64,000 bases of DNA from a phage, in sequence record PQ478073.1, one strand, 5' to 3'. Positions 56,355-57,985 of the stretch are shown here, in pieces (the first letter of the stretch is position 1; each line of letters begins with the position of its first letter). Below the pieces are notes generated by a model. The model ran no database searches, was not told the DNA's origin, and saw only the letters and a list, made by a program, of their open reading frames with translations. The translations under genes were made by a program, and so were the position numbers.

Positions 56355-56756
56355 ATGACTACAGTTGATGATATCTACAGCACTATACGCAATATGAGTA
56401 CAGATAGAAAAGTATTTGGTGATAAAGAAAAATCTAAGTGTTATGGTATTGATTCTTTTGATATAATTTCTTATGAGTACAACACGAGTGGAAATAGTTC
56501 ACTGAATATCGTCTGCCCTCGTGACCCAGAAAATAATTTTATGTATGTTGAAATTAATAATGATGGAATATTTTTTACAAAAGTTTTTAAAGGTGGAATT
56601 AATTACGAACCAATTGAATGTATGAATGAAGAAACTTTCTTTCAAGAAGATACAATTATCAATTTAGGTTTTAGTTTTGATGATTATAAAACATTAGAAC
56701 ATGACTTTAATCGTTATTATAACGGTTTCTTAAAGGAGTTAACAATTTATCTATGA
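56355..56756 (+). CDS. hypothetical protein
   Basis: ORF track. Confidence 0.55.
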   Translation: MTTVDDIYSTIRNMSTDRKVFGDKEKSKCYGIDSFDIISYEYNTSGNSSLNIVCPRDPENNFMYVEINNDGIFFTKVFKGGINYEPIECMNEETFFQEDTIINLGFSFDDYKTLEHDFNRYYNGFLKELTIYL

Positions 56757-57985
56757 ATAACCAATATGTTGAACAAACAATAGTGAAACACTTGGCTGGG
56801 TCACAAGCCTACGGAACCAGTACACCTGAAAGTGATACTGATTATCGTGGTATTTTTCTTGCTAATAAAGAATTTATTCTTACGCCATTCTATAAGGTCA
56901 AAGAAGTAGCTGATAAAAATGAAGAAGATACTAAATTCTATGAGTTAAATCAGTATTTAAAATTATACACTGAAGCCAACCCTAATATATTGGAATCACT
57001 ATGGGTCGATCCAGAACACATTGTAGAAAGTACTGAGATTTATGACTATCTTCGTTCATTTAACCAAAAACTTCTTAGTTCCAAGATTGCATTTTCATAC
57101 ACTGGATATGCATATAATCAGATTAAGCGTATGACAAATCATCACGGTTGGATGGATAAAGAGCGTATTGCTGAAAAACGATTAAATGAGATTTTAGAAG
57201 AACACCCTGTCGATGAGGTTCTTGCGTGGATGTATGATTCATTCCCACAGTATCTTGTTGAACGTTTAGATACATCCAACTTACATCCATTTAATGCTAA
57301 AAAGATTGATTTTGAAAAATATATGCGTGATACGTCATTGCAGTTAGTTTCGAAAAATCCATTAAAGCAATATCATTTTGTAAGATTAGTGCATAACTAC
57401 ACTACTGAAAAAATTCTTGATCGTGATTTCAATTTATTGAATTTTAATAATGGTTATGAACTAATTCATTACGGAGAAAACATTTTTGCGATTATTAAAA
57501 ATCCGAATGAAAGCACTATCAACGGTGATGGATCATTGCGTTATTTTTCTAAAGAGCGTAGTACTGAAGAGTTGAAAACCAAACCAGAACTAATTGTCAA
57601 ATTTAACGAAAAAGAATATCAGGAAAATAGTGAGAATAGGAAAAGTTATCATAAATGGAAAGAAAATCGTAATGCCAAACGTGCTATTTTAGAATCACAA
57701 CACGGATACGATTGTAAACATGCTATGCACACAATCCGACTTTTGAATAGTGCAGAAGAAGCATTACAAAGTGGAATTATTCAAGTTAAACGACCAGATG
57801 CACAAATGTTGATGGATATTCGTAATGGTAAATGGAAGTATGAAGAAGTATTAGAATATTTCGATGATAAAGTACAATACATTCGTGATGTTCTATATAA
57901 GAAATCAGTACTTCCTAAAAAACCAAACATCAAGTTAGCATCAAAAATTATCATTGATATTAGAGAAATGCAATGGTATAAGTAA
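56753..57985 (+). CDS. Pol-beta-superfamily nucleotidyltransferase (possibly RNA-repair-associated type)
   Basis: GSQAYGTSTPESDTDYRG (GS ... DxD) motif; AAAGGAG RBS. Confidence 0.55.
   Translation: MNNQYVEQTIVKHLAGSQAYGTSTPESDTDYRGIFLANKEFILTPFYKVKEVADKNEEDTKFYELNQYLKLYTEANPNILESLWVDPEHIVESTEIYDYLRSFNQKLLSSKIAFSYTGYAYNQIKRMTNHHGWMDKERIAEKRLNEILEEHPVDEVLAWMYDSFPQYLVERLDTSNLHPFNAKKIDFEKYMRDTSLQLVSKNPLKQYHFVRLVHNYTTEKILDRDFNLLNFNNGYELIHYGENIFAIIKNPNESTINGDGSLRYFSKERSTEELKTKPELIVKFNEKEYQENSENRKSYHKWKENRNAKRAILESQHGYDCKHAMHTIRLLNSAEEALQSGIIQVKRPDAQMLMDIRNGKWKYEEVLEYFDDKVQYIRDVLYKKSVLPKKPNIKLASKIIIDIREMQWYK

Follow-up and report, generated by a model that had tools for sequence, protein, structure and literature searches.

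The window, as we call the whole stretch of 64,000 nucleotides of phage DNA analysed here (record PQ478073.1), carries at positions 56753 to 57985 a gene whose product almost certainly belongs to the RlaP family of nucleotidyltransferases (NTases). By analogy with the characterised RlaP enzymes, which are distant bacterial relatives of the window protein, this enzyme probably works with the end-healing enzyme Pnkp and the RNA ligase Rnl1 of the same phage in the repair of tRNA. The gene, the family, its occurrence in jumbo phages and the proposed role can already be found in databases and publications; what is added here, an insert domain and a group of relatives that appear to carry inteins, is minor in both cases. 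The gene and the parts of its product are laid out as follows.

56753..57985, plus strand: gene assigned to the RlaP-family nucleotidyltransferases, an ATG-to-stop open reading frame of 410 amino acids plus stop
56753..57145, plus strand: N-terminal Pol-beta NTase domain, aa 1-131, delimited by the Pfam match, the invariant columns and the AlphaFold2 model
56798..56803, plus strand: G16-S17, predicted catalytic motif in the N-terminal domain
56834..56842, plus strand: D28-x-D30, predicted catalytic carboxylates
56927..56929, plus strand: D59, predicted third carboxylate
57146..57667, plus strand: phage-form insert of ~175 aa, aa 132-305, absent from the canonical ~250-aa RlaPs
57668..57982, plus strand: C-terminal helical RlaP domain, aa 306-410
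57704..57739, plus strand: motif G318-Y-D320-C-K322-H-A-M-H326..R329, invariant, in the C-terminal domain

The original prediction had described the protein as a Pol-beta-type NTase because of a GS...DxD signature near its N-terminus and had proposed a search with profile HMMs as a check. The signature was borne out by G16-S17 and D28-x-D30, and the search returned PF10127 (RlaP, RNA repair pathway DNA polymerase beta family) with 60.3 bits (E=3.1e-16, gathering cutoff 23) and PHROG 388, 'nucleotidyltransferase', with E=9.8e-77, so that the signature did not arise by chance. The direct PF10127 match is confined to aa 12-131, on profile positions 23-144, whereas the match to PHROG 388 is full length, with aa 3-409 lying on profile positions 32-335 of 351; record OZ209057 gives phrog=388 for T4 NrdC.11 as well. 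A scan of the 410-aa protein against NCBIfam gave no matches, and the PADLOC models, which include defence-system NTases, gave no family at E<=0.1. In a large protein database 794 homologues were found at E<=0.001, and PF10127 was assigned to all but one among the best 120 of them. Over the 4 kb around the gene, megablast gave an identity of 100% with Escherichia phage UB and of 98% with phage 121Q, the latter being an Asteriusvirus, a ~350-kb jumbo myovirus; the window itself comes from an Asteriusvirus jumbo phage. The label 'nucleotidyltransferase' is borne by the 98-100% identical genes of 121Q (gp506, the counterpart of the window NTase), JP4 and BAU.Micro_ELP-22. The gene begins with an ATG that shares bases (ATGA) with the stop codon of the 133-aa open reading frame before it. 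Its pN/pS is 0.08 in comparison with 121Q and 0.07 in comparison with ph0011; therefore, the gene is functional and under purifying selection.

The N-terminal stretch HLAG16-S17-QAYGTSTPES-D28-T-D30-YRG corresponds to the hG[GS]...DxD signature of Pol-beta-type NTases. In an alignment of 22 homologues, with identities down to ~40%, G16, S17, D28, D30 and D59 of the N-terminal part are invariant, as are R306, R310, D320, K322, H323, H326, R329, E336, R347, D349 and R357 of the C-terminal part. When distant members (T4 NrdC.11, Mycobacterium phage Kahlid gp35, Microbacterium phage Big4 gp210 and the homologue of Klebsiella phage KPP-1) were added to the alignment, G16, S17, D28, D30, D320, K322, H326 and R329 were still invariant, and T4 NrdC.11, Kahlid gp35 and Big4 gp210 each had an acidic residue, D or E, in the column of D59. 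The alignment thereby shows the predicted catalytic and metal-binding triad of D28, D30 and D59 to be intact.

No direct Pfam match was obtained for the C-terminal domain, which was recognised by way of Kahlid gp35, a protein of 248 aa that spans the whole PF10127 profile (positions 24-249 of 249). When the profile of the window clade was compared with Kahlid gp35 by hhalign (98.7% probability, E=2e-16), the aligned segments were aa 9-131 and then aa ~310-409, with the middle skipped. Therefore, the window protein consists of three parts, namely the RlaP NTase domain, an insert of ~175 aa and the RlaP C-terminal helical domain. The insert is itself composite in its distribution: its helical piece of ~65 aa (aa ~136-205) was found only in proteins of ~410-435 aa encoded on contigs of 260-380 kb, from Rak2-like jumbo phages, and its beta-rich piece (aa ~206-285) is, according to the homologue alignment, common to the phage homologues with a length of ~350 aa or more.

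The original prediction had also looked to structure prediction for an NTase fold with its acidic residues. The fold is present in the AlphaFold2 model that was built on the 22-sequence alignment (mean pLDDT 89.9, pTM 0.80), and the acidic residues are retained in the alignment. The NTase domain was modelled with a strand-helix-strand topology and aa 286-409 as helices. When the model was compared with the PDB by Foldseek, the top matches were Pol-beta-type NTases only, namely kanamycin NTase/ANT(4'), Hailong HalB, the NTase-like protein 3c18, LinB, AAD(9) and MNT; all of these matches were weak (best E=0.012), and the best were to Pol-beta NTases that have a helical domain at the C-terminus. 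Searched by sequence, the PDB yielded no match to either the single protein or the 22-sequence profile, and no RlaP-family chain was found in the sequence and fold searches; the crystal structure of PfRlaP was apparently absent from the copies searched. The insert (aa 132-305) was confidently modelled and had no match among solved folds. We speculate that it is an extra module for substrate binding or RNA recognition.

Among the homologues are seven of 682-763 aa (P0121, P0126, P0131, P0137, P0140, P0144 and P0094), whose extra length is due to an insertion of ~330 aa. That these long proteins were fusions to RNA-repair domains was considered and rejected, as the extra sequence appears to be an intein. 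The insertion lies between D320 and the next residue, C or T, of the invariant GYD(C/T)KHAMH motif, a site equivalent to 57712/57713 in the window; it starts with CY..DTEFLT and ends with GN, which is then followed by C or T. LAGLIDADG-type motifs occur within it, and PF14528 was found in one homologue, so that, from its motifs, the insertion has the hallmarks of an intein that carries a homing endonuclease. No intein is present in the window protein, which has Cys (C321) at the +1 position, while most intein-free homologues have Thr.

The proposal of a role in tRNA repair draws on what has been reported for the family. According to a survey of 224 jumbo phages (Iyer, Anantharaman, Krishnan, Burroughs & Aravind 2021, Viruses 13:63, PMC7824862), no NTase is more prevalent in these phages than RlaP, whose distribution mirrors that of RNA ligases and which is predicted to restore nucleotides lost to nucleases such as RloC before ligation. 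In a bioRxiv preprint of December 2025 (Carruthers, Fatma & Huang, PMC12776372), the RlaPs of Pseudomonas fluorescens and P. aeruginosa (PfRlaP and PaRlaP) were found to add one or two NMP (or dNMP) to the 3'-OH of RNA, with Mn2+ or Co2+ as the best metals and the 5' half of a cleaved-tRNA mimic as the preferred substrate; DNA and protein were not substrates, and the aminoacylation of a repaired tRNA lacking one nucleotide was partly rescued. The biological role of RlaP is a proposal in that preprint, which also places T4 NrdC.11 in the family. It has been reported that the nrdC.11-mobD.3 segment of T4 can be deleted in the laboratory (PMC9825161), which is consistent with a conditional, defence-related role but is not positive evidence of one.

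The original prediction had stated that this phage encodes RnlA and Pnk elsewhere, and by Pfam both presumed partners are indeed found in the window.

17484..18626, plus strand: T4-type RNA ligase 1 (Rnl1/RnlA), presumed partner (PF09511 E=1e-15, PF20819 E=7e-17)
19723..20655, plus strand: Pnkp/PseT-like polynucleotide 5'-kinase/3'-phosphatase, presumed partner (PF25109 HAD_PNKP E=1.5e-43, PF13671 E=3e-13)

These genes lie 36-39 kb upstream of the NTase gene and are not adjacent to it, and therefore the three do not form an operon. The counterpart of Rnl1 in JP4 is annotated as 'RNA ligase and tail fiber protein attachment catalyst'. No tRNA genes were found within the window; for RaK2, a relative of the window phage, an RNA ligase, Pnk, a CCA-adding enzyme and Pth2 have been reported (PMC3622015). 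When the three proteins were searched by tblastn against 50,697 phage records, 1658 records contained RlaP-like, 1651 Rnl1-like and 2313 Pnkp-like sequences, the counts being per query and not cross-tabulated per genome. The genus breakdowns of the three sets are similar, T4-like phages dominate the counts, and the records are not phylogenetically independent; because of this dominance and because the counts are per query, the co-distribution lends weak support.

Host anticodon nucleases of the RloC type would cut tRNA and remove a nucleotide. The ends of the cleaved tRNA would then be healed by Pnkp, and RlaP would act after Pnkp and before Rnl1, restoring the missing nucleotide or nucleotides on the 3'-OH of the 5' half. 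By extension from the two Pseudomonas enzymes, two divalent metals, probably Mn2+, would be held by D28, D30 and D59 of the window protein, and one or two NMPs would be moved from NTPs to the RNA 3'-OH without a template. Resealing of the tRNA by Rnl1 would allow phage translation to continue, and the net effect would be to counter 'smart' anticodon nucleases. The ~175-aa insert has no counterpart in Kahlid gp35 or Big4 gp210 and could change the substrate. A toolkit of Rnl1, Pnkp and RlaP is thought to enable a phage to neutralise anticodon nucleases that cut and trim tRNAs, and a phage RlaP with an extra domain is a reasonable test case for the countering of RloC-type 'smart' ribotoxins.

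Other functions can be imagined for an enzyme of this fold. The least improbable of them, though still unlikely, is that it tails RNA 3' ends outside repair, either marking host RNAs for decay or taking part in the 3' maturation of phage tRNAs. In accordance with this, the Pseudomonas RlaPs also labelled rRNA-sized species and full-length tRNA and had little NTP specificity (PMC12776372); the homologue in the Vequintavirinae phage KPP-1 is located 3 kb from a gene for a CCA-adding enzyme; and in several phages the RlaP gene is surrounded by early or nucleotide-metabolism genes, with no ligase gene alongside. However, the limit of one or two added nucleotides and the preference for the cleaved-tRNA mimic in the same preprint speak against tailing, as does the origin of the family itself, which was defined (Burroughs & Aravind 2016) by operonic linkage to bacterial RNA ligases, as related in the preprint and in the jumbo-phage survey (PMC12776372, PMC7824862). 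Far less credible is a signal synthase for counter-defence, which might, for instance, hold a Hailong-type HalA channel shut by means of oligodeoxyadenylate-like products, or might produce or imitate other second messengers. The generic similarity of its fold to HalB is all that favours such a synthase; no likeness to HalB-type proteins in structure or sequence was found beyond the generic NTase fold, and the absence of a match to the PADLOC models counts against it. We consider it just as improbable that the enzyme nucleotidylylates a small molecule or a protein, in the manner of KNTase, LinB or ANT on a metabolite or antibiotic, or by AMPylation of a host or phage protein as for MNT or DrrA; here too generic fold similarity is the argument in favour, but this activity runs against the tested substrate range of the RlaP family. 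Repair of tRNA together with Pnkp and Rnl1 is the reading that we prefer.

The location of the gene had suggested in the original prediction that it is an accessory gene inserted between fibre paralogs, and this part did not hold. The 939-aa protein encoded upstream (51865..54684) and the 929-aa protein encoded downstream (58692..61481) have no similarity to each other (best E=3). The true paralog pair, of 898 aa (48643..51339) and 939 aa, lies entirely upstream of the NTase gene, and its members are 27% identical from end to end (E=2e-63). These two had no Pfam or PDB match and bear the PHROG label 'unknown'; among the proteins of this phage group, they may represent the hair-like or fibre ones. 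When solved relatives were sought for the ~909-aa protein upstream and the 929-aa protein downstream, nothing useful was found. PHROG labels of tail fibre or tail are found only on two genes downstream of the NTase gene, and the region directly upstream is occupied by a block of small genes.

54752..56756, plus strand: block of small open reading frames, three tandem paralogs of 188, 173 and 169 aa and one of 133 aa, tightly packed and co-oriented, upstream of the NTase gene
54752..55318, 55325..55846, 55843..56352 and 56355..56756, plus strand: the four small open reading frames, head to tail into the NTase gene
~58026..61452: fibre cassette, an indel of 3.4 kb delimited by junction alignment, with open reading frames of 63 aa, 178 aa ('tail fiber protein', phrog_32568) and 929 aa ('tail protein', phrog_2871)

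The tandem paralogs are 27-31% identical (phrog_18641/7868), and the 133-aa open reading frame is phrog_22376. This block is kept upstream of RlaP in 121Q, in ph0011, which is a sister Asteriusvirus of 94% identity, and in the Rak2-like contig L003, where an RlaP of 60% identity is preceded by two proteins of ~900 aa, the small open reading frames and one of 129 aa. No fibre genes were found downstream of RlaP in that contig. In a jumbo phage with a 42%-identical RlaP the order is PhoH, NrdD, NrdG, two open reading frames and RlaP, followed by Peptidase_S74 fibres of ~990 aa, and a similar order is seen in the window, with PhoH, NrdD (45915..47783), NrdG (48096..48566) and, further on, RlaP. 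The open reading frame of 110 aa at 47792..48124, between NrdD and NrdG, has a counterpart in ph0011 that is annotated as a DUF4326 domain protein, and a DUF4326 gene is also located two genes upstream of RlaP in contig L003. In a 330-kb relative (ERZ27313658 k141_35547), the gene directly upstream of RlaP (L005:7455-8000) has a weak Pfam match to ART-PolyVal, an ADP-ribosyltransferase, and a gene for a glycyl-radical fragment is located just downstream.

The fibre cassette is present in the window and in 121Q and absent from ph0011, in which an acyl-carrier-like gene follows the NTase stop codon after ~140 bp; its counterpart in the window is at 61556..61975. That gene encodes an acyl-carrier-like protein of 139 aa, with a weak match to PF14573 (E=0.0036) and matches to the PHROG acyl carrier protein families. 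Both junctions of the cassette have the hexamer ACAC[T/A]C, and the megablast matches of six other phages stop within ~90 bp past the NTase stop codon. From the synteny and the junction data we conclude that the variable element is the fibre cassette and that the NTase gene is its left border. A recent insertion of the NTase gene itself, as a moron-like accessory gene within a tail-fibre module, has accordingly the slightest chance of all the alternatives considered: although the PHROG tail-fibre and tail genes follow it directly and large repeated open reading frames lie upstream, its GC content (0.29-0.34) is the same as that of its surroundings, the gene and the block upstream of it are collinear in 121Q, ph0011 and the 60%-identical Rak2-like contig, the 42%-identical jumbo phage keeps the succession from NrdD and NrdG to RlaP, and what differs between the sister phages is the cassette and not the NTase gene. 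The picture of the locus is thus corrected in that the mobile element relevant to host range is the tail-fibre cassette beside the NTase gene, which looks like a swappable host-range module.

A consensus scan for transcription signals gave the following sites.

54689..54712, plus strand: terminator-like hairpin with a T-run
54701..54729, plus strand: sigma70-like promoter, TTGACG-17-TATAAT, overlapping the hairpin
61483..61511, after the tail gene: perfect sigma70 consensus, TTGACA-17-TATAAT

The site at 54701..54729 is located just before the first of the four small open reading frames that lead into the NTase gene, and it is possible, judging by this position, that it is the start of the transcription unit containing that gene. 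The perfect consensus is directly followed by a hairpin with a T-run, and the pair spans 61483..61536. As a class, promoter-like sites were not enriched over shuffled sequences, and for this reason they are taken as a hint only.

Outside the family, KNTase/ANT(4') and Hailong HalB resemble the window protein in the succession of a Pol-beta NTase domain and a helical bundle. Like the window protein, the Pseudomonas RlaPs have at the N-terminus a Pol-beta NTase domain in which GS and three acidic residues occur, and at the C-terminus a helical domain in which basic and His residues are conserved, and in both cases an RNA ligase and end-healing enzymes are encoded in the same genome. However, the Pseudomonas genes are located between rtcB and rtcA, whereas the window gene is not part of a ligase operon, and the ligase partner in Pseudomonas is RtcB, in contrast to the 5'-phosphate ligase Rnl1 in the window phage. 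The canonical short RlaPs, such as Kahlid gp35 and Big4 gp210, are ~250 aa in length, compared with 410 aa for the window protein with its ~175-aa insert between the domains. The jumbo-phage RlaPs surveyed by Iyer et al. (2021, PMC7824862) are of the same family and come from the same kind of phage; the passages of the survey used here mention neither an insert domain nor inteins. T4 resembles the window phage in that it also encodes Rnl1 and Pnkp and in that its NrdC.11 gene, like the window gene, is found among nrd-type nucleotide-metabolism genes, away from the ligase. Between NrdC.11 and the window protein, the identity is 29% over the NTase domain (E=3e-13) and 24% over the C-terminal domain (E=3e-5), but NrdC.11 has 336 aa, and its middle region is shorter and different from that of the window protein.
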